64,000 nucleotides of DNA from Candidatus Doudnabacteria bacterium RIFCSPHIGHO2_02_FULL_42_25 (GTDB lineage Bacteria > Patescibacteriota > Doudnabacteria > UBA920 > O2-02-FULL-48-8): the NCBI GenBank assembly GCA_001777665.1, contig MFEQ01000003.1, positions 11,258 through 75,257 on the forward strand, in the 5' to 3' direction. Position numbers and translations under genes: made by a program. The notes under the pieces are model-generated. The model had not been told where the DNA came from. It saw nothing but the letters and a program-made list of their open reading frames with translations, and made no database searches. Numbering within the stretch: position 1 is the stretch's first letter; each line of letters opens with the position of its first letter. This document shows, in pieces, positions 6,460 through 61,762 of the stretch.

Positions 6460-6714
6460 ATGGATTTGGAAGCTGCGGTTAGTGACTTCCTGCAAAAAGT
6501 TGCGGGAAATGTAGATCTGGGTACTCGGCAGAAGATTGCACGGGGTTTTCTGCGGTTCATCGACGACGTCTCGGAGCGATCGCATATACCGAGAGAAGCA
6601 TTCGAACACGCTTCTTTTGTCGAGGGGACCGACGAAAGCGGCAATCTGACTATTGAGACGCGCATCGCGGCACCGAGCAGGAGGTGGGCGGATAGCACGG
6701 AGCCGGGTCCGTAA
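6460..6714 (+). CDS. hypothetical protein, high-GC ORF (84 aa from the ATG preceded by GGAGG; the ORF-track frame opens at 6430)
   Basis: Strong SD (ggagg) 5 nt upstream of ATG 6460. Acidic, protein-like composition. A hairpin plus T-run lies at 6721-6760. GC is much higher than in the flanks. Confidence 0.4.
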   Translation: MDLEAAVSDFLQKVAGNVDLGTRQKIARGFLRFIDDVSERSHIPREAFEHASFVEGTDESGNLTIETRIAAPSRRWADSTEPGP

Positions 6715-6804
6715 ACGTTCGCGGTTGGCACCAGTGCCAGCCTTTTTTATTTACTCGACCTATAATTTATTAGGCATTTAAAAAATCCTGACAGAAGTCA
6801 GGAT

Positions 6805-9847: not shown

Positions 9848-10552
9848 ATGATGGATATTAGAGAGTTCGCGAAACGGCACGGGATTTCAGTCATCGTTCG
9901 TCGTCACTTCGGGTACCGCAAGCCGGTCACAGACGCTCAGCTCACCCCACCGGTTCGCGCAGCACTGACCTACTCGCGCAATCTCGACGATCGAAAGCTT
10001 GGTCTGTTGTCCTCTGAAGTTGTGAAGGCGATGGATCAGGGTCGTCTGCTCGTCGCCATGGGGATCACTCCGCGTCTCGTCATCGTCGGTGACAACCAGC
10101 GCAATTGGGATGGCGGTCGTTCCACAGCGGAAGCGATCACCGATCTCACCGGCCTCACGGTCGACGTCTGGACCTCGCCTGCCGTCACCTACCCCCACTA
10201 CGCGAACTACGAGCAGAGCCTCGTCGAGTTCGGTGGGCCTGACAAGGGTGACTTTTCGCCCCACCGGTACCTCGCAGGCAAGACAGCCGGATCATTCTGG
10301 TCCGAGCCACCGCACGTCTTCGCCGATCGGGTCTCCCAGTCGGTACTCGCCGATTACGGTGTCGAACCCGTGCTCTTCGATCTCAACTTCGAGCAGGTGA
10401 CACTGTGCTACTACAAGCACGTCAAGAAGTTGATGCTCGAGCAGATCCCGACCGAGGGCGCTTGGATCCCCACCATGGGTGGCGGGATCGTGTACTCCAG
10501 CGATCGCCAGATCGCGATGGAGTTCCGACCCGACCTCACCATCAACGAATAG
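9848..10552 (+). CDS. hypothetical protein encoded by a high-GC gene-sized insert
   Basis: SD aaggaggg upstream. GC-rich codon usage is unlike the host. A GC-rich hairpin follows at 10575-10608. Confidence 0.5.
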   Translation: MMDIREFAKRHGISVIVRRHFGYRKPVTDAQLTPPVRAALTYSRNLDDRKLGLLSSEVVKAMDQGRLLVAMGITPRLVIVGDNQRNWDGGRSTAEAITDLTGLTVDVWTSPAVTYPHYANYEQSLVEFGGPDKGDFSPHRYLAGKTAGSFWSEPPHVFADRVSQSVLADYGVEPVLFDLNFEQVTLCYYKHVKKLMLEQIPTEGAWIPTMGGGIVYSSDRQIAMEFRPDLTINE

Positions 10553-18270: not shown

Positions 18271-18308
18271 AAAAGCCCCGCTTAGTAGCGGGGCTTTATG
18301 TTTTGTTT
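18271..18308. terminator. bidirectional terminator hairpin (aaagccccgcttagtagcggggcttt)
   Basis: Flanked by A/T runs on both strands. Terminates tRNA-Leu on the + strand and the lysozyme-like gene on the - strand. Confidence 0.7.
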
Positions 18309-18936
18309 AATTGATTAAAGGTTCAACTGGAGCTGTTTCTGCAATTATTTTTGCAGAAGCTAAGACTGCTGGCAAATGTTTTAGGTAAGCTCCTTTAGTA
18401 TAAGCATACCAAGGTTGGAATCCACGTCGAGAATACATTTCTAACGCGACATCCAAGTTATACTTACAATCCTGTAACTGTTCGAATGTGTGCCATGGAT
18501 TTCCTGGTCTCCAGTTAATCTGGGCCAATCCGATGTCGACTGAACCGTTGCGGTTCAATCCACGATTATCTCTGGTACATTCATGAGTACCATTTTCTGC
18601 CTTGAGGACGGCAATAAAGATATTACATTTATTGATGTCGCCAATTTTTGGACAGATATATGCTCGAATTTCTGGTTCGTGCATATAGACTCGAGCGTCA
18701 CCTACTGTTTTTGGAGGTAAAGCATATTTAGATGCTGACTTTGCAACTGGTGTCGGGGTCACAACTGGTTCAGGTTTTGGTTCAGTCTTTTTTCCTTCGA
18801 GAATTTTAGTTAAATCAGAAATTTTTATTTCAAAGACAAGGGTTGTTTTGTTTTCGGTAGCAGCTGACACATGAATTGGGAACACCATAGTGCTCACGAC
18901 CATGATCAGCATTACCCAGACAAAACGTCTAGTCAT
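18307..18936 (-). CDS. secreted lytic transglycosylase/lysozyme-like (GH23-like) protein
   Basis: Signal peptide, Pro-rich linker, and SVDIGLAQIN, the SLT-type catalytic motif. Confidence 0.6.
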   Translation of the reverse strand: MTRRFVWVMLIMVVSTMVFPIHVSAATENKTTLVFEIKISDLTKILEGKKTEPKPEPVVTPTPVAKSASKYALPPKTVGDARVYMHEPEIRAYICPKIGDINKCNIFIAVLKAENGTHECTRDNRGLNRNGSVDIGLAQINWRPGNPWHTFEQLQDCKYNLDVALEMYSRRGFQPWYAYTKGAYLKHLPAVLASAKIIAETAPVEPLIN

Positions 18937-19170
18937 TGAATAATGCTTTCTTAGCTTTGGTTATTCATAGCTCCTGGCTACGGATAAACAAAGTTGGTTA
19001 GACCTTATAATTTATAAAGAGCTTGATTTTGTTTGCGTAACCCTGCAAATATGGGCTTTTTGACAACATTAGGCTTTTATGGCGTAATGTTGCCTGCCCC
19101 GCCCTGTCCGGAGACAGGGTCGGGTACGCAACTATCAATCTTAGCATAAAACGCCAGCTTTGTCAAGGCT

Positions 19171-19300: not shown

Positions 19301-19377
19301 GGACGGTTAGCTCAGCTGGTTAGAGCGCCTCGTTTACACCGAGGAGGTCGCAGGTTCGAATCCTGCACCGTCCACCA
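19301..19377 (+). tRNA. tRNA-Val(TAC)
   Basis: GGACGGTTAGCTCAGCTGGTTAGAGC..., anticodon loop TTTACAC, T-arm GCAGGTTCGAATCCTGC, then CCA. Confidence 0.85.
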
Positions 19378-19403: not shown

Positions 19404-19690
19404 GCCGCGGTAGCTCAGCGGTAGAGCGCAGCCCTAAATATCTTTGGGGCCAGAATCAGTAATGGTTCTTGAGAAAAATTGGGTGAATTCGGGGGAACCC
19501 CAGTCATGCTGGACAATCCCGAGCCAAGCCAGAAAGGGCAATGGTTTTCTGGAAGGTGTAGAGACTAGCAAGTGAGTCCCAACAATAATCTTGCAAACAG
19601 CGCCCAACTCCTTTAGTAAGGATGATGATATAGTCCACATAGCTTCGGAAGAGGCTGGCGTCGGGTGTTCGACTCACCCCCGCGGCACCA
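19404..19690 (+). tRNA. tRNA-Phe(GAA) interrupted by a group I intron after U33 (exons 19404-19435 and 19648-19690)
   Basis: Exons assemble to GCCGCGGTAGCTCAGCGGTAGAGCGCAGCCCU|GAAGAGGCUGGCGTCGGGTGTTCGACTCACCCCCGCGGCACCA. P1 (GCCCU/GGGGC) and P10 (GAAGA/UCUUU) pairings fix the splice sites. Confidence 0.75.
19436..19647 (+). ncRNA. group I (IC3-like) self-splicing intron in the tRNA-Phe anticodon loop
   Basis: Conserved blocks match the Azoarcus tRNA-Ile intron: GAAGGTGTAGAGACTAG, CGAGCCAAGC, GCAAAC. The 5' exon ends in U and the intron ends in G. Confidence 0.8.
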
Positions 19691-19763: not shown

Positions 19764-20432
19764 ATGGCTAGAAACGATAAACATTTAGCACTGCTATTAA
19801 GAAAATCTGGGAAAAGTTATGGTTTTATAAGTCGAGAGTTGCAAATTCCCAAAAGCACTTTATCAGAATGGTTTAGTGGTCTTAAGTGGTCAGGTATTGT
19901 AAAAAATAAACTTATCACAAAGGCCAACTTGCTAGCACAAAAGCGGATGCGTTTAATGGCGAAAGCTAATCAAAAACGCTGGCTAGATTGGAGAGCAGGA
20001 TATCGGTTACAAGCTATAGAAGAATTTGAGCTATTGAAGAATAACCCTTTATTTATCTCGGGTGTAATGCTTTATTGGGCAGAGGGAGATAATGGTAAAA
20101 AAAGTAGTAATGTTCGACTAGCCAATATTGATCCACGAATGATCCGAATTTTTATCAAATTCGCTTTAAAGATTTGCAAAGTTTCAAAAGCAAATATTAG
20201 AATCGGTTTGATTTTATATCCTGATTTAAAGGATACAGTATGCAAAAGTTTTTGGAGTAAATATTTAAAAATACCTATCGTTCAGTTTCATAAAACTCAA
20301 GTGATTAAAGGGAATCATCCTACAAAAAGACTCGAATACGGCATTTGTATGGTCAGAATTGGTGGAGCAGGACTAAAGGAAAAAATAAAAGTTTGGATAG
20401 ATCTATGTTCAAAAGAAATTATGCGGGTATAG
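19764..20432 (+). CDS. free-standing LAGLIDADG-like homing endonuclease-like protein with N-terminal HTH
   Basis: FISGVMLYWAEGDNGKK...VRLANIDPRMIRIFIKF resembles the second LAGLIDADG block of I-DmoI (FIKGLYVAEGDKT...LRIWNKNKALLEIV). 3' end overlaps tRNA-Gly by 10 nt. Confidence 0.45.
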   Translation: MARNDKHLALLLRKSGKSYGFISRELQIPKSTLSEWFSGLKWSGIVKNKLITKANLLAQKRMRLMAKANQKRWLDWRAGYRLQAIEEFELLKNNPLFISGVMLYWAEGDNGKKSSNVRLANIDPRMIRIFIKFALKICKVSKANIRIGLILYPDLKDTVCKSFWSKYLKIPIVQFHKTQVIKGNHPTKRLEYGICMVRIGGAGLKEKIKVWIDLCSKEIMRV

Positions 20433-47131: not shown

Positions 47132-47794
47132 TACGAGGGTGACCCTCGTATTTTAGAATCCTTCGAAGTCGAAGGTTTTTTTAATTTCTTCATTTCGGTT
47201 CTGATGACTCATGACAAAGTCTTCATAGTGGGTTGTTGAGTTTTCAAACCAACTTAGTAGTATAGAACGATCGCAAATCGATTCAGGCGAGATACCTAAA
47301 ATTTCTTGAAAACTAGAGTATTCATATGTTTTGACATTAGAGGGGTTATTGTGAATATATGCTGAGAGGTATGAGGCATATTCACTGGTATCCACTAACT
47401 TGGCCTTAAATCTATCTTGAAATAAATTTCCAATACGAGAATATTTTTTATTTATATAGCATACATAGCTCGTGCATAACTTAAGAATTAGTTTATCAAT
47501 ATTTATCAAAGTATTTTGTTTGATAAGAAAATGGAAATGATTAGGCATGAGACAATATGCTAATATAGTGAATGTTCCTGGTGCAAATGGCTGAATTCTA
47601 GATTTACTTGGAGGCAATACTAACTTACCAAGAATAATTCTAAGGCGTTTTAGAAATTGAGTATAATCTTGATCATCAAAAAATATAAGTTGTTTATTAA
47701 CCCCACGATTGAAAATGTGATAATAATTACCAGCGCTAAATAGTTTATAGTCTCTGTATTGCATAAAATAAAGGGATACGAGGGTGACCCTCGT
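47132..47794 (-). mobile_element. REP - RAYT (IS200/IS605-type Y1 transposase) - REP unit
   Basis: Palindromes tacgagggtgaccctcgta at 47132-47150 and 47777-47794 bracket the transposase ORF. Confidence 0.7.
47153..47764 (-). CDS. REP-associated tyrosine transposase (IS200-like Y1 HUH transposase)
   Basis: HUH motif NHFHFLI. YHIFNRGVNKQLIFFDDQDY N-terminal region. Tyr-containing C-terminal helix (YVCYINKKYSRIGNLFQDRF). Confidence 0.75.
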   Translation of the reverse strand: MQYRDYKLFSAGNYYHIFNRGVNKQLIFFDDQDYTQFLKRLRIILGKLVLPPSKSRIQPFAPGTFTILAYCLMPNHFHFLIKQNTLINIDKLILKLCTSYVCYINKKYSRIGNLFQDRFKAKLVDTSEYASYLSAYIHNNPSNVKTYEYSSFQEILGISPESICDRSILLSWFENSTTHYEDFVMSHQNRNEEIKKTFDFEGF

Positions 47795-51515: not shown

Positions 51516-52814
51516 ATGGATCGCAAATATATCCTCATAGGCGGAATTGGAGTCCTGCTATTAATTCTAATAATAGTTGCAGTTTTTGCGTTCTCAGGCG
51601 ATTCAAAAAATAATCAACCAACGAACGAAAATATCGAACTGATTTGGTGGAAACCATTTGAGGATTCCCAGAATGTTCAGGAATTAATTAACAATTACCA
51701 GCAATTACATGGAAACGTTCAAATAAAGTATGTCAAGAAAGATTCAGCGGAATATGAGAATGAGCTCCTAAAAGCAATTGCCACCGGGAATGCTCCAGAC
51801 ATTTTTTCGATACACAACGATTGGTTGCCAGCTTATGAAAGTATAATTGCACCAGCACCAGAATCCCTGATTAGTCCTAAGGCATACAAAGATAATTTTG
51901 CTGATGTAGCCTATAATGATTTTGTGAAGGGCAATCGAATTTACGGCGTACCATTATCGATTGATGCCTTGGCTCTGTTTTATAACAAAGACATTTTGGG
52001 TTCGGCAGGATTACTTCCTCCGACAACGTGGCCAGAATTGGTAAATATGGTGCCAAAGCTGACCCAAGTTTCGAAAACTGGAGTTTTTGCGCAATCGGGT
52101 GTAGCGCTGGGAACTTCGGAGAATGTTAACCGCGGTGTGGATATTTTGACTTTGATGATGCTCCAAAACGGCACGAAATTTTATTCCGATGATTTCACAT
52201 CTGCAGAATTTGATCAATCACAGGAAGATTTTAATCCAGGCGTCTATGCTCTAACTCTCTACACACAGTTTGCCAATCCATCGAAGCAATCGTATAGTTG
52301 GAATGTCCGAAATGATCAAAGTGTTGACGCCTTTACCCAAGGCAAACTGGCGATGATGCTGGCGTATCAATATTTGCAGCCATTGATCAAAGCTAAAGCT
52401 CCAAATTTGGGCTGGGATACTGCCCCTGTTCCTCAAATCAGTCCGGAGGTTTTGAAAGTTAACTTTGCGAATTATTGGGGAGAAGCTGTCACCAGCGCTT
52501 CCAAAAATCAAGCCGCGGCTTGGGATTTTCTGAATTTTATCACTTCCAAGGAGGAATTGGAAAAGTATTACGCTAAACATAAAGTACCAGCATCAAGAAA
52601 AGATATATTGCCGCAGCAACAAGGGGATGCTGATATAGGAGTATTTGCCGAAGCCATCTTCACAGCCAAAAGTGTTTACAAAAAGGACGCCCGTATTTAC
52701 GAAGGTGTATTTAAAACAATGATTGATAGTGTGGTACTGAATGGGGTCCCGATCGATGATGCTCTACGAAATGCCGCGGAACAAATCAATCTTAATTTAA
52801 GAAAAAATGAATAG
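51516..52814 (+). CDS. membrane-anchored ABC-transporter solute-binding protein (SBP family 1), orphan
   Basis: N-terminal TM anchor and an SBP_bac_1-like fold. No permease or ATPase genes adjacent. Confidence 0.7.
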   Translation: MDRKYILIGGIGVLLLILIIVAVFAFSGDSKNNQPTNENIELIWWKPFEDSQNVQELINNYQQLHGNVQIKYVKKDSAEYENELLKAIATGNAPDIFSIHNDWLPAYESIIAPAPESLISPKAYKDNFADVAYNDFVKGNRIYGVPLSIDALALFYNKDILGSAGLLPPTTWPELVNMVPKLTQVSKTGVFAQSGVALGTSENVNRGVDILTLMMLQNGTKFYSDDFTSAEFDQSQEDFNPGVYALTLYTQFANPSKQSYSWNVRNDQSVDAFTQGKLAMMLAYQYLQPLIKAKAPNLGWDTAPVPQISPEVLKVNFANYWGEAVTSASKNQAAAWDFLNFITSKEELEKYYAKHKVPASRKDILPQQQGDADIGVFAEAIFTAKSVYKKDARIYEGVFKTMIDSVVLNGVPIDDALRNAAEQINLNLRKNE

Positions 52815-53238
52815 AACTAAATTAAATATTATTTTTGGTATGGTTATTCTGGGGTTAGCCATTGCACCCATAGCTTCAGCCGCATTGGTCACATGTGGTG
52901 GTAATAATCCAGAGGTATCTTCAAAAGCATGCGAATTGGGAGATTTAATTCAGACTTTACGATTAATAGTAAATACTTTGTTGTCGTGGGCTTGGTTAGT
53001 TTGTATCTTGTTTATTGTCTATGCGGGTATTCGAATGGTGACTTCGCGTGGTAATGATGAAGAGGTGAGTAATGCCAAAACAATTCTAACTAATGCCATC
53101 CTGGGATTTCTTGTCATTTTGCTGTCATTTGTTTTGGTAAATTTCTTAGTCGGATTACTTACGGGTTCGGGTGGATTTAATCCTGGAGCAATTTTTGATG
53201 CTTTTCAACTAGTTCCATCAAGTAGCTCAAAACCATGA
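52807..53238 (+). CDS. TrbC/VirB2-like (T4SS-type) pilin paralog 1
   Basis: Signal peptide, Cys pair (VTCGG...ACELGD), TM1, loop YAGIRMVTSRGNDEEVSNAK, TM2. Confidence 0.6.
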   Translation: MNRTKLNIIFGMVILGLAIAPIASAALVTCGGNNPEVSSKACELGDLIQTLRLIVNTLLSWAWLVCILFIVYAGIRMVTSRGNDEEVSNAKTILTNAILGFLVILLSFVLVNFLVGLLTGSGGFNPGAIFDAFQLVPSSSSKP

Positions 53239-53822
53239 TTAACTATTTAATTTTAGCTCAAACTGCCAACACAATTTGCAACAACACAGTCGATAAACTT
53301 TGCAATCCCGTTAAAGTTGCAACTTTGCCACTGTTTATTTCCAAGATTTTGATTGCCGCCGGTGCCGTTGTCGGTGTACTCACGATAATAATGGTGGTGT
53401 ATAGCGGTACGAGAATGATTCTTTCTCAAGGAAATGAAGAGGACGTTACAAAAGCAAAAAGTTCTTTGCAATGGAGTATTTCAGGTTTTGTTCTAACACT
53501 GTTTGCTTACATTATTGTTTATGCAGTAAGTGGATTTTTCCAAACCAGACCTTTTGGAGCCAATCCAGGGCAAATAGAAAATCCACTTCAGAGTCCAGAC
53601 ATATTCTCTCTGATTCAAACCGTGCTAACTAGTTTTCTGGGAGTCGTCGGATTATTGGCGATACTGTTTATAATCATTAATGGGTTTCGATACATCACCT
53701 CCAGAGGGAATGAGGAGCAATCAGGTCAAGCTAAACAAGGTTTAACCTGGTCAGTATTAGGATTAATTGTTAGTCTTTTGGCTTACGTGATTGTGGCGGC
53801 AACCGCTAACTTTTTTAAATAA
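53235..53822 (+). CDS. TrbC/VirB2-like pilin paralog 2 (two fused pilin modules)
   Basis: Loops YSGTRMILSQGNEEDVTKAK and INGFRYITSRGNEEQSGQAK, each between hydrophobic helices. Confidence 0.6.
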   Translation: MINYLILAQTANTICNNTVDKLCNPVKVATLPLFISKILIAAGAVVGVLTIIMVVYSGTRMILSQGNEEDVTKAKSSLQWSISGFVLTLFAYIIVYAVSGFFQTRPFGANPGQIENPLQSPDIFSLIQTVLTSFLGVVGLLAILFIIINGFRYITSRGNEEQSGQAKQGLTWSVLGLIVSLLAYVIVAATANFFK

Positions 53823-53828
53823 AATTAT

Positions 53829-54212
53829 ATGAAACAATTATTTATAAGTTTAGTTTTGGTGACTATTCTGATGGTTCCTTTATTTAGTGTAAATGCACAG
53901 GTATGCGATACGACTAAGCCAGTTACTAGTGCCGTTTGCAACCCAGCTCCTGGTTGGTTTATTTCATACCAGGATAACAGCGTAAGAGGTGTGATAACTA
54001 TGATTATCCAGTTTCTGTTACTGATTGTCGGACTTGTAGCTATCGCCTTTATTATTTATGGCGGTTTCCAGTTTATTACTTCGAGAGGGGACGAAGAGCA
54101 GGCCACCGCTGGTAAAAGAACCTTGACTAATGCTATAATAGGTCTAGTAATAGTTATCCTGTCCTATATAATAGTAGCCGTAATAGTAAATGCCCTGAAA
54201 GGGAGTGCTTAA
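53829..54212 (+). CDS. TrbC/VirB2-like pilin paralog 3
   Basis: Signal peptide, Cys pair, and loop YGGFQFITSRGDEEQATAGK. Confidence 0.6.
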   Translation: MKQLFISLVLVTILMVPLFSVNAQVCDTTKPVTSAVCNPAPGWFISYQDNSVRGVITMIIQFLLLIVGLVAIAFIIYGGFQFITSRGDEEQATAGKRTLTNAIIGLVIVILSYIIVAVIVNALKGSA

Positions 54213-54258
54213 TTAACAAAACTATTAAAAGGTCGAAGAATATTAAGAAAGGACTTAT

Positions 54259-54630
54259 ATGAAAAAAATATCAACATCTAAAATTGCTTCAATTGTGATG
54301 GTTGCCTTCGTTTTGACTATGGCTATCGCCCCGGTCGGATCAGCTGCGTGGGTAAATCCACAATGTACTGGTACTGGACTGCCATGTCAAACATCTATTA
54401 CGGATTTCATCATGAACATCATCAACATTGCTTTAACTGTTGCTGGTTTGATCGCAGTGTTGTTCCTGATCATTGGTGGTTTCCGCTACATCACATCTGC
54501 GGGCAATGAAGAAACAGCGGAGAACGCGAAGAAGATTATCATCAATGCCATTATCGGTATTGTGATAATCATTCTCTCATTCGTGATTGTCAGAGTGATC
54601 TCTGAAGCTTTGGTAAGAGGTAATACTTAA
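54259..54630 (+). CDS. TrbC/VirB2-like pilin paralog 4
   Basis: Signal peptide, Cys pair (QCTGTGLPC), and loop IGGFRYITSAGNEETAENAKK. Confidence 0.6.
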   Translation: MKKISTSKIASIVMVAFVLTMAIAPVGSAAWVNPQCTGTGLPCQTSITDFIMNIINIALTVAGLIAVLFLIIGGFRYITSAGNEETAENAKKIIINAIIGIVIIILSFVIVRVISEALVRGNT

Positions 54631-54641
54631 ACCAACATTTC

Positions 54642-54986
54642 ATGAGTAGAATTAAATACATCTCGTTAATATTATTGTCTTTACCATCTGTTGCATTTGC
54701 GCAGATTATTCCGGATCGAATTCCAGGACTGCCTGGAGATCAGTATAGTACAGTTTCCAATGCATTAACTGAAATCATCCAAACAGTTTTAGTTGTGGTC
54801 GGCCTGATAGCTGTCGCATTTTTGATATACGGTGGGTTCCGTTATATCACATCTGCTGGAAACGAAGAGACTGCGGAATCAGCAAAAAAGACAATCCAAA
54901 ACGCTATTATAGGGCTAGTAGTTATTATTTTGTCTTATATAATAGTAGTGGTTATATCGAACGCTCTACTTACAAGCGATATATAA
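54642..54986 (+). CDS. TrbC/VirB2-like pilin paralog 5
   Basis: Signal peptide and loop YGGFRYITSAGNEETAESAKK. Confidence 0.6.
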   Translation: MSRIKYISLILLSLPSVAFAQIIPDRIPGLPGDQYSTVSNALTEIIQTVLVVVGLIAVAFLIYGGFRYITSAGNEETAESAKKTIQNAIIGLVVIILSYIIVVVISNALLTSDI

Positions 54987-55005
54987 TTCCGAAATAAAAA
55001 AAGAG

Positions 55006-55054
55006 AGCCGGGACCCCTGTGGAGCCCCGGCTTTTTTGCGTTGACTTCAACGCG
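55006..55054. terminator. bidirectional terminator at the pilin-array / high-GC island junction
   Basis: agccgggacccctgtggagccccggctttttt, plus a second small hairpin gcGTTGActTCAACgc. Confidence 0.7.
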
Positions 55055-56045
55055 AGGATGCTTCGCAGTCTTTCTTTACAGTTGACTGGTCGAACACTCG
55101 CTGTTCCTTGAAGTGGTCGTCAGTTATGACGATGGTCATGTGGCGACCACCGACGACCTCGTTCTCAGCCTGTGAGTACGCCCTCACTGGCCAAGTGTAG
55201 TAATGCCCATCGCTGATCCGAACGGCAGTCAGGTCTGCGTATTCGCCAGCGATTAGCGGTACTTTTTGATCGACGATACCGTCGATCTGGTTCGCCGCAC
55301 CGATGTAGCAACCCCGCAGGTAGATCTCGACACCTTTGGTCCTGCCCTGAGTCTTCAAGCCGCCGATCGTACCACGGTTCCTGACAGTTCTGGAGACCTC
55401 GGCGTAGAACGGGTCGACGTAGCCCACGGTTCCTGGCTGCATATAACCCACAGCTCCGTAGCCAACCGCAGCGGGGTAACCGATGCTGCCGTAGGCAAAT
55501 CGATTCTGTTTGGCCAGGAAACTCTCGCATCCGTAATCGCCGTAAAAGCAGGGATTATAACCCGGCAAACTCCGGCGACGTCGGTACATCTCGTCTGGAT
55601 CCATCTGCGGAGGCTGGATGGCAGCAGATCTTGCTTGAACTGCTGGACCTGACACGACAGGATTCGCGTTCTGAGTCGCTGTGACTTCTGGGACTGTTGC
55701 TTCCTGTAGGCTCCCCGGTTTGACTTTGCGAATGTAGGTAAGAGGTGGCTTCACCTCCACGTAGCACCCGATTCGACCCGCGACTTGCTTCAGCACCTCG
55801 TATACCGGGAAGTCATCGTAAGGCACGAGCGGCGGAACGATGCGCGATGCTTCACAGCCTGCGGTGTGAGCGACAATACCGATACGGCTGTTTGCGCCGT
55901 CACCCGAAAGCTCGGTCACGATCTCCCCGAACGTTTTCGATTTCGTGAGGTCGATGGTGACGCGCTCCTGCTGTGCCGCTGGAATCTGCGCGTAAACCGG
56001 CATTGCGAACGCCAGTGCGCTGAGAACGAAAAAGAAACACTTCAT
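55047..56045 (-). CDS. high-GC island gene 1: secreted hypothetical protein with GY-rich region
   Basis: SD ggagggg, ATG at 56045, signal peptide MKCFFFVLSALAFAMPVYAQ. Own promoter at 56113-56141. Confidence 0.55.
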   Translation of the reverse strand: MKCFFFVLSALAFAMPVYAQIPAAQQERVTIDLTKSKTFGEIVTELSGDGANSRIGIVAHTAGCEASRIVPPLVPYDDFPVYEVLKQVAGRIGCYVEVKPPLTYIRKVKPGSLQEATVPEVTATQNANPVVSGPAVQARSAAIQPPQMDPDEMYRRRRSLPGYNPCFYGDYGCESFLAKQNRFAYGSIGYPAAVGYGAVGYMQPGTVGYVDPFYAEVSRTVRNRGTIGGLKTQGRTKGVEIYLRGCYIGAANQIDGIVDQKVPLIAGEYADLTAVRISDGHYYTWPVRAYSQAENEVVGGRHMTIVITDDHFKEQRVFDQSTVKKDCEASSR

Positions 56046-56112
56046 TGTTTGCCCCTCCATTGAGGCTGTTAACGCATACTTCGTTGAGAGCTGGGCGGGA
56101 AATTTAATAAAA

Positions 56113-56141
56113 CAGTATAGCAAAAATAAGCAATTTTGTCA
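56113..56141 (-). promoter_or_regulatory. promoter TTGACA-17-TATACT in an AT-rich spacer inside the high-GC island
   Basis: Read on the - strand. Preceded by a terminator hairpin at 56196-56236 for the upstream operon. Confidence 0.45.
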
Positions 56142-56266
56142 ATAATAGCACGAAAATATTAGTTTGTAAGTAAAAAAAGACCGGCCTCTCTAAAGCGAGA
56201 AGCCGGGGCGACGCTACTAATGAGCGTCGAAAATACTCTTATTTGTTCATCCTCCTTGGATGCTAC

Positions 56267-57139
56267 CTAGTTGATTTTGACTAGCAGTTCGCCCGGGTGG
56301 GCTTTGCAGACGTCGGTAGAAAACGTCTGTCCTAACTGCGGGTTGTCAGGTGTGATCACGAACTTGCGCTTGCCGGAACCGATGAAGTAACCGCTTCCTT
56401 CGGCGCCGTCTAGCACGACTAACCCGTTGAACCACCCCTGAAAGTGTCCGCCCTCGTAGTACTTCGGTCCGACGCAAAGTACAGCGTCAGAGAACAGAGG
56501 GAAACCGGCTTCGCAGGAGTCGCCGTCCTCGTCGCAGAACCGGCCGATCGCTTGATTGAGTTTGCCGGTTTCTGGAGTCGGATTATCGAGTCCGCGTTCG
56601 TGCATCAGGACTGTTCGGTCCCGAGCATTGGGATTACGTATCCACGTAATTCCATCCGGACCAGATTCGTGGGTCGGGTAGTACTTCGGTCGAACCTTCC
56701 CAAAAACCTGGATCCTTGTCGGTACTCGGATCTCCCGAAGGTAAGCCCAGTCTGTATCGTCGGCTTCGACCTCGGTAGACAGATACGACTCGTCACGGTC
56801 GGCGGCGTGAGCGTCCCATGCTTTTTCGACACGGACTAGATCCCGTGATCGATTGGCAGATGGCCACAAAATCGCCAGTAGTTCGTTCGAGTTAGTGACC
56901 TTCCGCTGTCTTTCGGCACGTCTCACGATCTTTTCGCTCTCGTCGTTGAGCTGAAGAGCGTTGACATGGTGTTCGCGGCTGAGCTTGGTCTGCATCTCCT
57001 TCTGCGCTTCCCAGTACCGCGGGCGGTTACGTTGCTCGTAGTACTGATAAAGCGCGAAGCCGATGGCAATCACTGCGAGGACCTTCATGATCGCGCGCAA
57101 GTTGACAGAACTGGTTTTCTTTTTGTCTTCTCTCGCCAT
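56267..57139 (-). CDS. high-GC island gene 2: N-terminally membrane-anchored hypothetical protein
   Basis: SD gaggag, one TM helix (LAVIAIGFALYQYY), and a Cys-containing extracytoplasmic domain. Confidence 0.55.
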   Translation of the reverse strand: MAREDKKKTSSVNLRAIMKVLAVIAIGFALYQYYEQRNRPRYWEAQKEMQTKLSREHHVNALQLNDESEKIVRRAERQRKVTNSNELLAILWPSANRSRDLVRVEKAWDAHAADRDESYLSTEVEADDTDWAYLREIRVPTRIQVFGKVRPKYYPTHESGPDGITWIRNPNARDRTVLMHERGLDNPTPETGKLNQAIGRFCDEDGDSCEAGFPLFSDAVLCVGPKYYEGGHFQGWFNGLVVLDGAEGSGYFIGSGKRKFVITPDNPQLGQTFSTDVCKAHPGELLVKIN

Positions 57140-57149
57140 GTCAGTCTCC

Positions 57150-58181
57150 TCAGTGATGATGACTCGTGGACTTCATGGACCCCGCTAGAATGACAAGGCC
57201 TACCAGAAGAAGCAAAATCGGATGCTCTTCGAAGTAGTTTGTCCCTCGCGAGATCCAGCCTTCGGAGCTTTGATCTTCTTCAGGTTTGAGATCAGCCTTG
57301 ATCTCCTGGATCGCTTCCAGTTGCTGTTCGTCTTCAGCCGTCCAGGAATGACCGACTGGATCAAGTTTGTACTCGCGCTGTTTATTCAGCAGCTGGAGTT
57401 CTTGCTTGTCCACCCGTTCACGCCAGTACCGGTCGACGCCTTCCTTGGTTTCGATACTCTTCGCAGTCTGACGCTTTTCTGTCTGACTGTAGTGATACTT
57501 CGCCATGAGGTAGTCGTATGTTCCCGGTGCGATGGTCCGTACGGTCATTGGTCCCAGAAGGAACAGCGCGTATACGGTAACTGCGTATCCGAGCCGTCGC
57601 CGCCATTTCTTGATGTCGACGAAGTCCTCTGTAGCGACGAAGAAGAGGATCATCGTTGTGATCATCACCGTTGCGGAGAACCAGTCGTTCTCCCACACCG
57701 GGAAGATCCCACACACCATCAGGAAGACTTCCGACCACATGAAGATGGTCGAAATCAGATGGAACGCGATTCCACTGATGTACTTCTCGTGCCACAGGAC
57801 TTCCTGACTGCCTGCGTGCACTTCAGCGTGTACTTCCGGAGGCTGACCCACGATGTTGCGGAGCCAGTTCGGAATTACTTCGTTTACTCGACGCCATATC
57901 CCAATAAAGAGATCGACGCCGAGGAGAGGAACCGCGATCTTGCGCGAGACGTAGAGGTAAATCAGGTACCCGGTGAAAATTCCAATGCGGGCCGGGGTAT
58001 TACTCCCCAGGACCCGAGTGGCTGCTGCGAACACCACGATGTTCGCGATCATCAGGATCACGGCGATTTGCACGTCGCGAACCTGATCGCCGAACCAAAC
58101 CCTGAACTCGGTCATTCGGAGCCGGCCAATTCGCGCCCGCTCCTGAAGGTTCTCCCACAGTGCTTCGAACATCTCGAACAT
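57150..58181 (-). CDS. high-GC island gene 3: polytopic membrane protein (about 6 TM), His-rich C-terminus
   Basis: SD aagagga and multiple hydrophobic helices. Confidence 0.55.
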   Translation of the reverse strand: MFEMFEALWENLQERARIGRLRMTEFRVWFGDQVRDVQIAVILMIANIVVFAAATRVLGSNTPARIGIFTGYLIYLYVSRKIAVPLLGVDLFIGIWRRVNEVIPNWLRNIVGQPPEVHAEVHAGSQEVLWHEKYISGIAFHLISTIFMWSEVFLMVCGIFPVWENDWFSATVMITTMILFFVATEDFVDIKKWRRRLGYAVTVYALFLLGPMTVRTIAPGTYDYLMAKYHYSQTEKRQTAKSIETKEGVDRYWRERVDKQELQLLNKQREYKLDPVGHSWTAEDEQQLEAIQEIKADLKPEEDQSSEGWISRGTNYFEEHPILLLLVGLVILAGSMKSTSHHH

Positions 58182-58199
58182 TGCAGTAATCCTCTTAGG

Positions 58200-59084
58200 T
58201 TAACGGGAACGAATCCCGAAGTTGAAGTGAAAGCGCCGACGCGGCCGCTTGAGTTTCGTGACCTTGGTCACCCGATCCGTCTTCGCCGCTTCATGTACCC
58301 GGACTATCTCGACCTGGCTGTCAATGCGGTGTCTGCAGAGATCGTATTGACGCTTCTCCGCTCGCTCTTCACGCCGCAGTGCCCGCCATTCGCGGAATCG
58401 AGCCCAGCGCTGCTCCCACCAATTACTCAGTGAAGTCATGAGGTTGCGGTTGGCTCTGTGCTGTTTTGCAGCCAATTTTTGTTCGAGACCTTCCCGAACT
58501 CCACGCAGTCGCAGCGTGTCCTGTCGAACGCTCTGGGTAGCCTCGGTCAGTGCTTTCTGACCGTCTTTCTGGAGCCACTTCAGGAACGTCTGCCACGTCG
58601 TCTCCACTTTTGACTGATCGAGGTTCATGACATGCGCCCAGCGATCCCATTCGTCATCTGTCATGCGAGCATCCTTCTCGAGAGTATTCGCGATTTTCTC
58701 GGGAGTATCTTGCATGACAGTAATCCGATACCAGTCAGACTGCTCCGATGTGAGCTTAGCGAGGCGTTTCGACAACCTGGTGCGGTCGTTGTCTTCGAGG
58801 AGGTTCCTTGCGTCGTTGAAGCGTCGCTCGTCCTCGCTCTTCACGCCCCAGATCCGCAGCCCGATGTAGTCCGCTGCGGTTGCACTGATCTTTTCGCCGG
58901 TTTTCTCGGCGAAAGATCCGAGGAGCTTGTTTAGAATCGAAACGCCGCTCGCGGCCAGGAGCTTGACTATTGACGCGACGCCGATCGCGGAGGTGGCCGT
59001 ACCGAGGTGCTTCAGGAACTCGAATCCGTCGGCGCCTCCATGGTCCTTCGGTTTTTCTTGCGGTGTGTCTGCCATCTGTCTCAT
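58200..59084 (-). CDS. high-GC island gene 4: hypothetical protein (coiled-coil rich, Arg-rich C-terminus)
   Basis: ATGA start/stop overlap with gene 5. Confidence 0.55.
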   Translation of the reverse strand: MRQMADTPQEKPKDHGGADGFEFLKHLGTATSAIGVASIVKLLAASGVSILNKLLGSFAEKTGEKISATAADYIGLRIWGVKSEDERRFNDARNLLEDNDRTRLSKRLAKLTSEQSDWYRITVMQDTPEKIANTLEKDARMTDDEWDRWAHVMNLDQSKVETTWQTFLKWLQKDGQKALTEATQSVRQDTLRLRGVREGLEQKLAAKQHRANRNLMTSLSNWWEQRWARFREWRALRREERAEKRQYDLCRHRIDSQVEIVRVHEAAKTDRVTKVTKLKRPRRRFHFNFGIRSR

Positions 59085-59836
59085 GCCTCTTTGAGTAAAG
59101 TCTTCTTCACCAGCTCGTTGCTCTCCTCGTGGAGGAAAGAGCAGTACGCATCAGCTGTCAGGAGCTGGATATGAAGAGTGAGTTTGCCGTTGTCGAGAGT
59201 TTCGAACCCTTTTTCGCCGTCATACACCTCGTCATATCCACGCACCTTGAATTTCTGACCGGCGTTGATAGACACCGTCCCTTGCTCTGGCTTGCCGGTC
59301 TCGTCCTTACAAATGAACGTGACCGGATTCCAGTTGTCCAGGGACAGAGGATGGGGGATGACTTCGAATCGCTTCTTGTCGTCCTTCTTCGTCGTCGGTT
59401 CCGCCACGGGAGTGAACTTGCCCGTCGTGGGCAGAGGTTTGGTATCCTCCCAGCTGTAGACGCCGTGCACGGCAGTGATGTGCGTGAACTTCTCGTGTGC
59501 TGTCGTCAACGGGAATTTTCCCGCTGCGATGCCGCGCTCGTCGGTTTCGAGCACCCAGACACTCTTGCTCCCATCAGCTGCAGTCTTCTCGATCTGCTTC
59601 TGACGTTTCTGGGTATCGGCACCGAGCCAGAACCAGAGTTGTTCGCCTTTGATGGCTTTGCCGTCCTTCGTGATTCTGACAGAGAGTTCGACTGCTTCGC
59701 GCTTACCTCCGCACTCGAATTCGTACTTGAAGACGGGTGCCTTCGGTCGCTTGTCCTGTTGCTTCCCGCGATCTTGCTGACCGCGGTTTCTGTTCTGATC
59801 GCGCTGTCCTCCAGTGCGACCTTGGTCTCTTGCCAT
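59081..59836 (-). CDS. high-GC island gene 5: hypothetical protein with low-complexity N-terminus
   Basis: SD ggaaggag. First gene of the five-gene minus-strand operon. Confidence 0.55.
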   Translation of the reverse strand: MARDQGRTGGQRDQNRNRGQQDRGKQQDKRPKAPVFKYEFECGGKREAVELSVRITKDGKAIKGEQLWFWLGADTQKRQKQIEKTAADGSKSVWVLETDERGIAAGKFPLTTAHEKFTHITAVHGVYSWEDTKPLPTTGKFTPVAEPTTKKDDKKRFEVIPHPLSLDNWNPVTFICKDETGKPEQGTVSINAGQKFKVRGYDEVYDGEKGFETLDNGKLTLHIQLLTADAYCSFLHEESNELVKKTLLKEA

Positions 59837-60029
59837 GTCTGCTCCTTCCGCATTTAGCGGGAATTTGATGTTGATTTTTCTGTGAGACTACCTGATACCA
59901 ACCACACTTTCGTGTAGCCGATCTCAAACAATCTCGTGTACAAACCTAGGTTGTCAAAGGACTCTCATGTCCAAATGCCATATATGTGGCGGGCAGACAT
60001 GATTAACGTCAAATGATAGCAGATTTTGG

Positions 60030-60091
60030 CCATTTTGTCAATAGTTAGCGTTATCTGAAAGGTTGACAAAATGGGCTGTTTTTGCTACTAT
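60030..60091. promoter_or_regulatory. symmetric divergent promoters: CCATTTTGTCAA ... TTGACAAAATGG with -10 TACTAT (+ strand) and TATCAT (- strand)
   Basis: Both -35 hexamers lie in the arms of a 12-bp perfect inverted repeat (60030-60041 and 60063-60074). Confidence 0.5.
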
Positions 60092-60154
60092 TTGGGGTCG
60101 CAAGTTGGGAATGAGCCTGACTGCGCGTTCGTCCACAAATCACAGGGGGAAATA

Positions 60155-61585
60155 ATGCTGCCAACTCGAATTAAGGTTCTCTGGTTGACGGCGGCGGAAA
60201 TTATAGCGATGGCCGCAGGAAAACCCTCTGGGGTTTTCTGGGGTGTAGTCACTCACACTTCGCCACACCTCGACGAACTATGGGGCGTATTCCAACTTCG
60301 GCACTGGGGAGAACATCGATTCCCCGGAATCTGTAGTCCGGATTTCGTGCTCGTGCTCCTCATGGATCCGGATAGCATCACTTGGCAAGAACTCTCTGCG
60401 CTCGGTCTCATTCCCGTCGGTATCGGGGGAAAAGAAAATCCCTTCGATGAGCATGGTCTCGTAGACGAAGATGGCGAACGAGTCGAGACTTGCGCTGCGA
60501 TGTTAATCGAGCGTGGTCACCGGCCTCGGTATAAGAAAGACCCGGGTGGTTACAAGGCCTGGTTTCAGGATGCAATGAAACGCGGACTGGATCTTCTCAA
60601 TCGCGTGAAGTTCTTCCGGAGACTCTATCCGAACGCCCAGGTTTACATCCATGCCATCGACACAATCACCAAGTACGTCCGACAGGGTGATCTCAATCGG
60701 ACCGAAGACAAGCACGCGGCCGGCAATGACGTGAAGGACCGATGGTCCGTATACGAGGACTTGGCGCGTAAGAAGCTTCGTCTACCGAAGGACATGACTC
60801 CGCTGGCGGAATTTATTCCAAAGGACGAGCGAGAAGCCTTAAACGTCCTTGGAACACGCGTCGTCAATGACACATTCAGGGACCTTTGGCTTTACTTGGC
60901 TCGGGGAATATCGTTCGCAGATTGCATTCGCCGAGTTAAGGACAACCCCCCGGAGAAGCGCAAGTTCTACATCGAAGGTATCAAGCCTCCGATGTGGCTG
61001 AAGATTATTCGGGAGCATCATCCGCTTGCGAATTTGCGTGAAGTTCCTCCCGTGCTTCGACATCTCGGTGCGGACTGGACATATAAGCGGAACGCCTCGG
61101 GCCACATCCACATCGGCTTCCCCGACTACGTCATTAAGATCGTCGAGGAAGACGAGATTGACTCGGAAATGACGACGACAGAAGAGGAGTACGTTAGTCG
61201 GACACGCATCAAGGTCAAGTTCTTCATCCAGAACGTTCTCCGGGCCTTGCGACGTCTGGAGAAAGTTAAGTTCGGGAAGAATTGGACTGAAGAAGAAATG
61301 GGACGACCTCAGCTCGAAGGTTCGCTGTTTTCGACACCGAACCTAGAGGCTGGATTCATCCTGTGGGGTTCGACTTTCGCCGGGCAAGGAACCATAGCTT
61401 GTCCGTTTGAAGATGATGATCTGATCCAGCTCCTCATCGACAACATCGAGGGCGAGATCGTCGAGTCGCGCGAACTCCATCACGCCAAGAAACTCGCAAG
61501 GGAGGAGGACGAAGTAAGGCAGCAGATCGCGATAACCGCAGTGACTTCACTGGCAGATATGCCAGTGGACGTAACTGTCGGCTAA
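60155..61585 (+). CDS. high-GC island gene 6: cytoplasmic hypothetical protein (476 aa)
   Basis: SD aggggga plus ATG 60155. The longer ORF-track frame begins inside the promoter. Confidence 0.55.
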   Translation: MLPTRIKVLWLTAAEIIAMAAGKPSGVFWGVVTHTSPHLDELWGVFQLRHWGEHRFPGICSPDFVLVLLMDPDSITWQELSALGLIPVGIGGKENPFDEHGLVDEDGERVETCAAMLIERGHRPRYKKDPGGYKAWFQDAMKRGLDLLNRVKFFRRLYPNAQVYIHAIDTITKYVRQGDLNRTEDKHAAGNDVKDRWSVYEDLARKKLRLPKDMTPLAEFIPKDEREALNVLGTRVVNDTFRDLWLYLARGISFADCIRRVKDNPPEKRKFYIEGIKPPMWLKIIREHHPLANLREVPPVLRHLGADWTYKRNASGHIHIGFPDYVIKIVEEDEIDSEMTTTEEEYVSRTRIKVKFFIQNVLRALRRLEKVKFGKNWTEEEMGRPQLEGSLFSTPNLEAGFILWGSTFAGQGTIACPFEDDDLIQLLIDNIEGEIVESRELHHAKKLAREEDEVRQQIAITAVTSLADMPVDVTVG

Positions 61586-61591
61586 GTCGAT

Positions 61592-61643
61592 GGCCCGAGA
61601 TTCTGTTTCCCCGCAAGGGAGCAGTTCTCGGGCCTCGTTTTTA
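61592..61643 (+). terminator. GC-rich intrinsic terminator closing the island (GGCCCGAGA...TCTCGGGCC tcgttttta)
   Basis: 9-bp perfect stem plus a T-run. Confidence 0.75.
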
Positions 61644-61675
61644 TATATTGGATATTTTGATACAATACCTTACAT

Positions 61676-61762
61676 GCCGGGGTGGCGAAACTGGCAGACG
61701 CATCAGCTTTAGGAGCTGACGGAAGAAATTCCATGCAGGTTCAATTCCTGTCCCCGGCACCA
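61676..61762 (+). tRNA. tRNA-Leu(TAG), type II
   Basis: GCCGGGG/CCCCGGC acceptor, discriminator A, CCA. Anticodon loop TTTAGGA. Long variable arm. T-arm CAGGTTCAATTCCTG. Confidence 0.85.

Follow-up and report, generated by a model that had tools for sequence, protein, structure and literature searches.

Compositional islands in bacterial genomes are commonly taken as recent horizontal transfers, and amelioration theory holds that such signals fade. O-antigen and capsule loci are usually GC-poor, encode glycosyltransferases and sugar pathways, and are swapped among strains. In Borrelia, the vls locus has ~49% G+C in a genome of ~28.6%, which its authors attribute to strong selective pressure, and it is further marked by a coding-strand GC skew of ~0.52, by G-runs, and by arrays of silent cassettes for gene conversion (PMC11499132). 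Arrays of VirB2-like pilin genes have been reported from Patescibacteria (441 arrays of 2–11 genes), and the same study summarises a report that the VirB2-like pilin gene set is indispensable to a cultivated relative for its epibiotic lifestyle (PMC12102498). Here we describe a high-GC block of six genes (G1 to G6) that lies between such a pilin array and a tRNA-Leu(tag) gene in Candidatus Doudnabacteria bacterium RIFCSPHIGHO2_02_FULL_42_25 (GenBank assembly GCA_001777665.1, contig MFEQ01000003.1, positions 11,258–75,257 of the forward strand); this stretch of 64,000 nucleotides is referred to below as the window, and the block comprises its positions 55,041–61,645. Neither an operon of this kind nor a GC anomaly is described in PMC12102498, and we found no description of a GC-rich island or operon in the candidate phyla radiation (CPR) in the literature.

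Our reading, to which we give a probability of roughly 0.6, is that the block is an ancient, pilin-linked envelope operon whose coding G+C content is actively held high. Lineage-specific envelope operons and compositional islands are themselves known kinds of element; what is unusual is a compositional anomaly that persists lineage-wide. That the block is ancient, inherited mainly vertically within the Doudnabacteria lineage, and neither a recent island nor an artefact is, in our judgement, very likely.

Composition and boundaries of the block

The G+C content of the block is 54.0%, compared with 41.1% in the remaining ~57 kb of the window, which serves as the reference for composition. An initial annotation, made from the sequence alone, had estimated 55–60% for the block and well under 40% for its flanks; both figures were overdrawn (the flanks have ~41%). 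It had also allowed that the composition might prove uniform on computation, which is not the case. Its description of a sharply bounded block of ~6.6 kb with its own codon usage holds, since windowed GC, GC at third codon positions (GC3) and tetranucleotides are all outlying. The six 1-kb windows within the block have G+C contents of 0.52–0.57, against a mean of 0.412 outside (standard deviation 0.033), which gives z = 3.3–4.8; GC3 is 0.61–0.68 in G1–G6, compared with 0.28–0.44 in the flanking genes for a sugar-binding protein, the five pilins and FtsH; and the tetranucleotide distance to the window background is 0.42–0.59 in the block and 0.17–0.30 elsewhere. Host genes that are expected to be well expressed have GC3 values of 0.37 (S1), 0.36 (IF2) and 0.39 (FtsH), the range for these genes together with RecA being 0.36–0.45.

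Codon usage in the block mirrors that of the host in reverse: the fractions of TTC, TAC, ATC, AAG, CAG and CTC+CTG are 0.85, 0.83, 0.66, 0.66, 0.74 and 0.68 in the block, but 0.31, 0.36, 0.34, 0.22, 0.29 and 0.26 in the host. The ratio R/(R+K) in the encoded proteins is 0.40–0.58 compared with 0.22–0.38, and this amino-acid shift is present in every species. The coding-strand GC skew of the block genes is 0.00–0.05, and neither internal repeats nor, within the 64-kb window, paralogues of block genes were found. Host-like spacers with host-type promoters had already been remarked upon in the initial annotation, and computation agrees: the spacers of the block have G+C contents of 0.41 and 0.44, compared with 0.41 for spacers elsewhere in the window, and the promoters are of the TTGACA type. 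The GC excess is thus confined to coding sequence.

The G+C content steps up at ~55,000–55,050 and down at ~61,800 (200-nt resolution). The bidirectional terminator that had been proposed for the left edge and the GC-rich terminator proposed for the right edge both fold into hairpins: the two strands of 54,990–55,050 gave −21.4 and −24.8 kcal/mol (z = −3.0 and −4.9), and 61,586–61,655 gave −33.2 kcal/mol (z = −5.6), the latter stretch having a homologous counterpart in L004 (loci and contigs used for comparison are designated by L numbers). Beyond the right edge, tRNA-Leu(tag) is a conserved neighbour, in the order tRNA-Leu, FtsH, tRNA-Val, rather than an integration scar. As had been noted from the outset, neither an integrase nor an attachment (att) repeat is present: a repeat search of the window detected no att repeats bracketing the block, no fragment of tRNA-Leu of ≥14 nt occurs within 54,700–55,400 at the left edge, and the domain searches were likewise empty.

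Occurrence in independent assemblies and related genomes

Both junctions of the block are 100% identical between the window and an ENA scaffold of 107 kb and a JGI contig. The metagenome-assembled genome (MAG) GCA_001777775.1 at NCBI is 99.5% identical to the window apart from N gaps, with seven single-nucleotide polymorphisms beside gaps; the exact G2 protein is found on at least 24 contigs, and the block architecture recurs in MAGs of unrelated studies. A scan anchored on FtsH, with one genome per GTDB species, yielded 16 Doudnabacteria loci, in which FtsH is 73–84% identical to that of the window and tRNA-Leu(tag), FtsH and tRNA-Val occur in that order without exception; Candidatus Doudnabacteria is ranked by NCBI as a candidate phylum, Doudnaibacteriota.

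The stretch from the last pilin gene to the tRNA gene (3–8 kb) could be examined in 14 of the 16 FtsH-anchored loci as well as in the window and L004. Its G+C content was measured in 14 loci, the window and L004 included, and in all 14 the stretch is GC-richer than both flanks. Block GC in these loci is 0.49–0.59 (mean 0.541, standard deviation 0.027), compared with 0.37–0.53 (mean 0.430) in the left flank, and block GC3 is 0.53–0.77 compared with 0.34–0.69. In every genome sampled, the block is GC-richer than the genome itself. Every one of the ~23 related loci that were checked has a GC-enriched block of the same architecture between VirB2-like pilins and tRNA-Leu(tag)/FtsH. L004 is syntenic with the window. 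Its three pilins are 53–66% identical to pil3–pil5, and they are accompanied by four genes on the minus strand, a G6 homologue in divergent orientation (49%), the terminator and the beginning of tRNA-Leu; the block there has 55–63% GC as against 37–40%. L143 (GCA_001777575.1), from another species, has an identical six-gene layout with block genes of GC 0.60–0.63 and GC3 0.73–0.80, compared with 0.41–0.52 GC, and the metagenome contigs L088, L094, L095, L097 and L098 show the same GC jump directly past their pilin arrays. In contrast, the pilin arrays of other CPR lineages, used as a negative control, have no adjacent GC3-outlier genes.

From the pilin side, every block encodes, in this order, a protein with a signal peptide, one of ~280 amino acids (aa) that is anchored at its N-terminus, a polytopic protein, a soluble protein of ~250 aa, and the product of the first gene ('MA…'), which carries a basic tail or a cold-shock domain (the latter in six of 97 block open reading frames, ORFs). 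Global identity between species is 21–32% for block proteins, which is at noise level, compared with 35–74% for flanking proteins and 73–84% for FtsH; profile–profile comparison with hhalign gave probabilities of 83–98% for the proteins at position 1 and 91–95% for those at position 2. In the FtsH tree, sister species have block families in common (L013/L015, L008/L020 and L012/L014, and the window and L006 in part), as vertical descent predicts. The families of the window form a mosaic, G1 and G3 being found also in the sister L006, G5 and G6 in L010, L004 and L143, and G4 in L018, which points to some replacement or differential loss. None of the 97 block ORFs of the relatives contains integrase, transposase or phage structural domains, and no homologue of a block protein was detected outside Patescibacteria in sets of 5.8 billion and 1.8 billion proteins.

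An empty junction between pilins and tRNA-Leu was found in outgroups only, and in none of the Doudnabacteria loci examined. In L099 and L100 (FtsH 64–67% identical), tRNA-Leu lies ~100 nt past the last pilin gene, the array being followed directly by the tRNA–FtsH pair. In L029 (FtsH 62%), the tRNA–FtsH pair directly follows the pilin array and the junction is empty, but a homologous GC-rich operon of three genes is located on the other side of the array (Table 1). Its products are a G5-family protein (hidden Markov model, HMM, E 1e-9), a helical protein resembling G4, and a fusion of the polytopic and outer-domain proteins (451 aa, C-terminus …GYSDGNNSGGFHVTIRIVHK), which is polytopic with a β domain at its C-terminus. 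Its GC is 0.52–0.55 and its GC3 0.57–0.63, compared with 0.41–0.46 and 0.38–0.39 in neighbouring genes. Thus, the link between operon and pilins has outlived a rearrangement, and the GC excess follows the genes rather than the chromosomal site.

The window contains a second high-GC ORFan gene with sharp compositional edges, at 9848–10552. It has 27 homologues, detected in CPR genomes alone, and the three with a source name are from Doudnabacteria or Magasanikbacteria. The gene is syntenic in three other Doudnabacteria genomes (L148–L150, positions 5001–5714), where it lies between the genes for a TrmB regulator and a PEP-utilizer; these orthologues are 38–43% identical and have GC 0.556–0.564 and GC3 0.67, compared with 0.40–0.42 for the locus.

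The slot between the operon promoter and tRNA-Leu, which is the site of G6 in the window, contains varied small plus-strand genes elsewhere (L007 1897–2382, L009 9291–9765, L008 8830–9207, L016 9412–9789 and L010 8636–9307). Among them are paired genes of 71–85 aa, possibly toxin–antitoxin pairs (not individually scanned), and genes of 125 aa that are the probable source of two matches to 23S-rRNA intervening-sequence proteins (23S-rRNA-IVP/bAvd-like). The variety of these small genes suggests that the slot beside the tRNA gene is a local hot spot for accessory genes. In L009 and L088, signalling genes extend the GC-rich block on the tRNA side: L009 (4263–9021) encodes both a membrane Ser/Thr kinase and a PP2C phosphatase, each with a zinc ribbon, and L088 (16251–19989) a VWA-domain protein in addition to a zinc-ribbon Ser/Thr kinase. 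An SLT transglycosylase occurs in L098. The position-1 ORF of L019 (2985–4169) contains a masked N-run and a fused Proton_antipo_N segment, probably reflects a scaffolding join, and was excluded from the conclusions.

Genes, promoters and products

The positions of the genes and signals are given in Table 1. The initial annotation had recognised a translationally coupled minus-strand operon of five genes. Four of these, G5-G4-G3-G2, are indeed tightly packed, with a 4-nt overlap between G5 and G4 followed by gaps of 18 and 10 nt, but G1 is set apart by a 221-nt spacer that contains a terminator hairpin and its own promoter. The divergent orientation of the sixth gene (G6, plus strand) and the good Shine–Dalgarno sites, found in six of six genes, are as had been described.

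Table 1. Positions of the main features in the window and of the homologous operon in outgroup L029
Feature	Position	Strand	Remarks
High-GC ORFan gene, 234 aa	9848–10552	+	GC 0.60, GC3 0.75; AT-rich 5' DNA, GC-rich hairpin 3'
Five VirB2-like pilin genes (PF18895 T4SS_pilin)	52807–54986	+	Pfam; host-like GC3, 0.28–0.44
Bidirectional intrinsic terminator, pil5 (+)/G1 (−)	55006–55032	both	Terminator scan; left edge of block
G1, secreted protein, 332 aa	55047–56045	−	ORF, GC3 0.635; signal peptide MKCFFFVLSALAFAMPVYAQ; own transcription unit
G1 promoter, TTGACA-17-TATACT, extended −10 TG	56114–56142	−	Copy of motif
Terminator hairpin with T-run, 3' of G2	56181–56206	−	−19.9 kcal/mol, z = −3.7; splits operon from G1
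G2, bitopic membrane protein, 290 aa	56267–57139	−	N-terminal transmembrane (TM) anchor, helical stretch, C-terminal extracytoplasmic domain
G3, polytopic membrane protein, 343 aa	57150–58181	−	~6 TM segments, charged coiled-coil stretch, C-terminal TM segment
G4, helical, highly charged protein, 294 aa	58200–59084	−	One hydrophobic segment on N-terminal side, basic C-terminus
G5, first gene of operon, 251 aa	59081–59836	−	Disordered Arg/Gln/Gly-rich N-terminal tail, two β-rich domains
Promoter of G5-G4-G3-G2, TTGACA-17-TATCAT with TG	60013–60041	−	Copy of motif
G6 promoter	60063–60091	+	Third copy of motif; back to back with operon promoter (inverted repeat I1)
G6, cytoplasmic protein, 476 aa	60155–61585	+	Predicted DHH/DHHA1-type phosphoesterase fold; divergent to operon
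GC-rich terminator hairpin, 3' of G6	61592–61636	+	Folding; right edge of block
tRNA-Leu(tag)	61676–61762	+	Own promoter; right neighbour of block
Homologous GC-rich three-gene operon in L029	1948–4872 (of L029)	−	Divergent, upstream of pilin array

The three promoters of the block are near-copies of a single motif, TTGACAAAAT-N10-TGCTA, in which a consensus −35 element is separated by a 17-nt spacer from an extended −10 element. The motif of the G1 promoter is kept before G1-like genes in L008, L014, L018 and L021. In ~20 related loci, the operon is headed by TTGACAAAA-N11-TGCTA, which often precedes the G1-like gene as well and is nearly missing from the remaining ~15 kb of the locus. In many loci, the promoter motif is followed by a short conserved sequence or by an inverted repeat (…GTCATCATG…), and in the window a conserved element (…ATCATGTCTGCCCGC…) is located downstream of the operon promoter at ~59,985–60,005. 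At 59,985–60,012 (−), the element …GTCATCATGTCTGCCCGC… has equivalents in L004, L006, L008, L010, L016, L019 and L020; it is often a short inverted repeat or hairpin, the ATG there would open a mini-ORF (MSAR…), and its candidate roles are a stabilising hairpin at the 5' end, a leader peptide and an operator. The window holds one further near-match to the promoter motif (two mismatches), at 19142–19166 (−), upstream of an ORF at 18307–18936 (−) of 209 aa with a signal-peptide-like start.

The six block proteins gave no significant match in Pfam, PHROGs or PADLOC, in agreement with the earlier view that they are ORFans, and the expectation of mostly secreted or membrane products is sustained by the signal peptide of G1, the bitopic topology of G2 and the ~6 TM segments of G3. 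In the alignment of the G1 family, the signal peptide is followed by a domain resembling secretin N0/STN, then by a linker rich in G, Y and P, and finally by a β-rich domain at the C-terminus. STN (PF07660) matches two of 11 family members (best E 9.9e-5) and is below the Pfam threshold for most, and the N-terminal ~75 residues align with N0 domains of PilQ in PDB at E 0.002–0.03; the secretin pore domain (PF00263) is absent from all G1-family members scanned. Matches of the linker to 'prion' were discarded as compositional, and a protein search with the 11-sequence alignment returned two proteins, which is uninformative on distribution.

The TM anchor of G2 had been correctly recognised, but the protein is hardly Cys-rich, with four cysteines in total; its outer domain contains the conserved motif IGRxCxxxxCxxxFP, and hhalign relates it to the position-2 families F12 (93%) and F24 (91%). 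G3 has a homologue in L006 (28% identity over 345 aa, E 7e-37), its family F05 being present in five loci, and the sole detectable relative of G4 is in L018 (27% identity). G5 is predicted to have neither a signal peptide nor a TM segment, and the HMM of its family has 11 members including the one in outgroup L029 (E 1e-9). Big_1 (PF02369) gave one match (E 4.6e-6) to one of the 97 scanned block ORFs, not specified which.

The pilin array adjoins the high-GC operon in every relative, on the opposite side in outgroup L029. G1–G6 have no Pfam match at E ≤ 1 to VirB3/4/6/8 or other profiles of type IV secretion systems (T4SSs), and the block ORFs of relatives contain no mating-pair-formation homologue except one SLT transglycosylase. 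VirB4 was not recognised among genes with Pfam labels in the ~10 kb to the left and right of the block, the rest of the window not having been scanned for it.

G6 is an accessory gene, which only some relatives possess. Two close relatives of G6 were found among 5.8 billion proteins, one of them on contig L004, and a profile search of 1.84 billion representative proteins gave 116 relatives, mostly of 300–470 aa, those with names being Doudnabacteria or Patescibacteria proteins. Ten relatives were checked against Pfam, and none had a family at E ≤ 0.01. Aligned relatives share the motifs THxxxHxDE and GxGGxxFDEHG, and residues H34, H38, D40, E41, D98, E99, H100 and D179 of G6 are invariant or near-invariant in 56 sequences. 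AlphaFold with the 56-relative alignment gave a model with a mean confidence (pLDDT) of 86 and a template-modelling score (pTM) of 0.84; with an alignment of three sequences pLDDT was 38, so the distant relatives were needed. The model has the two-domain DHH/DHHA1 fold, and its match in a library of viral structures is 'DHH family phosphohydrolase' (E 1.1e-4); at the level of sequence, DHH (PF01368), DHHA1 (PF02272) and UPF0160 do not match G6 at E ≤ 1, nor does any PDB sequence. On the basis of the model, G6 is probably a DHH-type phosphoesterase, with a nucleotide or short nucleic acid as its probable substrate. One distant relative sits between RNase HII and L32/NusB/RNase III/SMC, a housekeeping context, and a scan of viral contigs with G6 revealed no relatives there.

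Other features of the window

A match to the group I intron family (RF00028, 72 bits) is located at 19426–19657 (+), ~50 nt past tRNA-Val(tac) (19301–19377) and outside all detected tRNA and rRNA genes; it is followed by an ORF of 222 aa at 19764–20432. The region 6390–6731 has ~54% GC, only an implausible ORF (GC2 > GC1) and no Rfam match, and might encode a structured RNA of an undescribed kind. An IS200/IS605-type Y1 transposase gene (PF01797; GC 0.31) at 47153–47764 (−) adjoins tRNA-Ile(tat) and a ComM/Mg-chelatase-like gene.

Interpretation and alternatives

Judging from predicted features, the block comprises the four-gene unit G5-G4-G3-G2, the separately transcribed G1, and a variable accessory slot occupied here by G6. 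The products would be arranged from inside to outside, starting in the cytoplasm with G5, which is β-rich and has a basic tail, and continuing with G4 as a helical protein, G3 as a polytopic and G2 as a bitopic membrane protein, and G1 as a secreted protein; the outer domain of G2 would be of the disulfide type. Because the linkage is conserved through a rearrangement and the predicted locations run from inside to outside, it is conceivable, at a little short of an even chance, that the block specifies an envelope-spanning module which acts together with the VirB2-like pilins, perhaps as a surface complex that is associated with the pilus or makes contact with the host. The block proteins have evolved very fast, whereas the architecture and the strong extended −10 promoter have been kept.

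High GC is a heritable, gene-intrinsic property of the block coding sequences. It is found in every relative, moves with the operon and is lacking in the spacers, which argues for a continuing force on the coding sequence or transcript. The likeliest candidate, which we put forward tentatively, is continuing selection on the coding sequence or mRNA; we favour it because GC3 is high in every species despite saturated synonymous sites, and because the excess is coding-confined and follows the genes. It is also possible, although unlikely, that a subset of genes, including at least the pilin-linked operon and the 234-aa family at 9848–10552, stays at a GC equilibrium of its own over phylum-scale time, independently of position and without horizontal transfer, which would imply an undescribed gene-specific force. 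Such a force might be selection on transcript GC, for example for resistance to AU-directed RNases or toxins or for chaperone-dependent translation, or a transcript-targeted GC-biased pathway of repair or mutation; the most radical candidate would be tuning to the expression machinery of a GC-rich partner cell, with delivery via a T4SS-like apparatus.

Three other causes of the high GC were considered and rejected. Overlapping antisense genes are not indicated, since long antisense ORFs (e.g., 57,222–58,433) are no longer than those in synonymous-codon shuffles (p = 0.09–0.92). Translational selection for host-optimal codons does not agree with the low GC3 of S1, IF2, RecA and FtsH, and a regional, position-dependent mutation effect does not agree with spacers at host GC and with an L029 operon that is GC-rich elsewhere.

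Several observations weigh against the reading of an ancient envelope operon with actively maintained GC. Well-expressed genes of the host (S1, IF2 and FtsH, GC3 0.36–0.39) are not GC-shifted, so that block codons have no known benefit. The first gene is of at least two unrelated types, G5-like and cold-shock-domain, and positions 3–5 could not be linked across all loci by profile–profile comparison, so that replacement, rather than divergence, may account for some of the genes. The correlation between block and flank GC is weak (r = 0.40, n = 14) and does not separate a genome-plus-offset model from a shared external pool. The contigs L099, L100 and L105 end at the pilin array, so that its other side is uncovered. 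As to the products, the STN/N0 assignment of G1 has borderline E-values, PDB profile searches with the G2 and G5 families gave nothing meaningful, and Pfam is likewise empty for G2–G5.

A recent island from a high-GC donor such as an episymbiont's host, inserted beside tRNA-Leu and not yet ameliorated, would explain the sharp edges, foreign codon usage, tRNA adjacency and ORFan content, and it was among the possibilities raised by the initial annotation. We regard it as very improbable, because the same architecture and GC shift occur in all ~23 related loci, and equally shifted orthologous blocks are what the annotation itself had named as evidence against an island. Furthermore, integrase, att site and tRNA fragment are all lacking, different species have the promoter in common, tRNA-Leu and FtsH are ancestral neighbours, and no near-identical DNA was seen in relatives, in which protein identity is 21–49%; transfer from a high-GC host in particular finds no support, the two protein sets having yielded no homologues in high-GC taxa or anywhere outside Patescibacteria. 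There is next to no chance that the abrupt composition change at both edges reflects an assembly chimera, in which DNA of a GC-rich organism was joined into a CPR contig: the junctions are 100% identical in the ENA scaffold and the JGI contig and 99.5% in the NCBI MAG, the same structure is found in MAGs of many studies, and host-type promoters, Shine–Dalgarno sites and terminators are common to both sides of the junctions. A single ancient acquisition from a high-GC source, at or before the base of the lineage and followed by vertical descent, is a further alternative. The GC would then be a slowly decaying relic of constrained genes, which fits with a block that is clade-wide and missing from other CPR pilin arrays, and whose whole composition, amino acids included, resembles that of a ~55% GC genome. 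Against this stand proteins that are among the least constrained of the locus (21–32% identity), so that synonymous sites are saturated, and a GC3 that, although it is the fastest-ameliorating class, is the most strongly raised whichever species is considered. In the genomes with the highest GC (L014 and L143) the block is richer still, and a relic would not hold 0.54 ± 0.03 across genomes of 0.37 to 0.53. The old acquisition with domesticated promoters that had been suggested may be right as regards an event at or before the lineage base, but the high GC3 would still need a continuing force, and a relic that accounts for the composition on its own is improbable.

A hypervariable cassette locus, at which operon alleles are swapped time and again among Doudnabacteria through homologous recombination in conserved flanks, from a GC-rich mobile pool (phage, plasmid or GC-rich relatives) and in the manner of O-antigen or capsule loci, is suggested by the mosaic of families (G1/G3 with L006; G5/G6 with L010, L004 and L143; G4 with L018), by the extreme divergence of surface proteins between conserved flanks, and by the varying cargo of the slot on the tRNA side (G6, candidate toxin–antitoxin pairs, 23S-IVP genes and kinases). 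It is nevertheless distinctly unlikely. Sister species have families in common, G6 has no relative on viral contigs, and since no sampled genome matches the GC of its own block, there is no visible donor pool within the lineage; the L029 operon is GC-rich although relocated, and the single-gene locus at 9848–10552 behaves alike in fixed synteny. The cassette-like mobile element of the initial annotation finds no support either, as the 97 block ORFs include no mobility genes and an att site is lacking. We see an equally low likelihood for a GC-biased process targeted to the locus or transcript, that is, biased gene conversion at a recombination hotspot or transcription-coupled A/T-to-G/C hypermutation, which would speed divergence and raise GC without selection for GC as such. 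Fast protein divergence does coincide with high GC, the shift extends to all three codon positions and to the amino acids, the strong promoters imply high transcription, and GC follows genes rather than position; however, spacers and 5' leaders in the block are not GC-enriched, the coding-strand GC skew of 0–0.05 shows no strand asymmetry, and there are no repeats, paralogues or donor cassettes in the window, nor is a candidate enzyme encoded nearby.

A strong anomaly of GC and codon usage that is kept in orthologues across an entire candidate phylum, at two loci, with host-type spacers and conserved promoters, means that composition alone would misclassify such genes as foreign, and island-detection methods would go systematically wrong in such genomes. 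Provided that the anomaly is actively maintained, these genes make a clean natural system in which to study the forces that hold a gene off the mutational equilibrium of its genome. Since the operon is a fixed partner of the VirB2-like pilin array, the five envelope proteins, so far uncharacterised, and the DHH-type enzyme are candidate components of a pilus or host-contact apparatus in uncultured ultrasmall bacteria.

Comparison with known systems

The block resembles tRNA-linked genomic islands in its sharp compositional edges, atypical codons, ORFan cargo and adjoining tRNA gene. Unlike such islands, it lacks an integrase, an att duplication and a tRNA fragment, occurs in all relatives instead of patchily, is flanked by an ancestral tRNA–FtsH neighbour, has conserved promoters, and shows no amelioration despite saturating divergence. 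Like O-antigen and capsule loci, it lies between conserved flanks, is atypical in GC, encodes cell-surface products and has alleles that diverge strongly or lack homology, but its proteins are non-enzymatic envelope proteins, its inheritance looks mainly vertical, and its GC is high.

Individual products can be compared in the same way. G6 belongs beside the DHH/DHHA1 phosphoesterases (RecJ, NrnA, GdpP, PPX1, Cdc45 and MYG1-like proteins) by its predicted fold, but its motifs THxxxHxDE … GxGGxxFDEHG are non-canonical and it is ~150 residues longer than its nearest relatives. Through its N-terminal ~75 residues the G1 family may be related to secretin N0/STN proteins (PilQ, GspD and the FecA signalling domain), whereas the secretin C-domain is lacking, the remainder is a low-complexity linker and an unrelated β-rich domain, and the organism is a CPR bacterium of the monoderm type. 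With respect to the T4SS/VirB2 pilus of Patescibacteria, the block is a fixed neighbour of the five-gene PF18895 array and encodes membrane and secreted products, such as partners of a pilus would be expected to be, although G1–G6 do not match T4SS Pfam profiles.

The vls locus of Borrelia differs from the block, which has a skew of 0–0.05, has no repeats or paralogues in the window, and is a multi-gene operon of different proteins. However, both are lineage-wide surface-protein loci with a G+C content above that of the genome, and vls is thus the nearest precedent for GC that is maintained rather than inherited from a donor.

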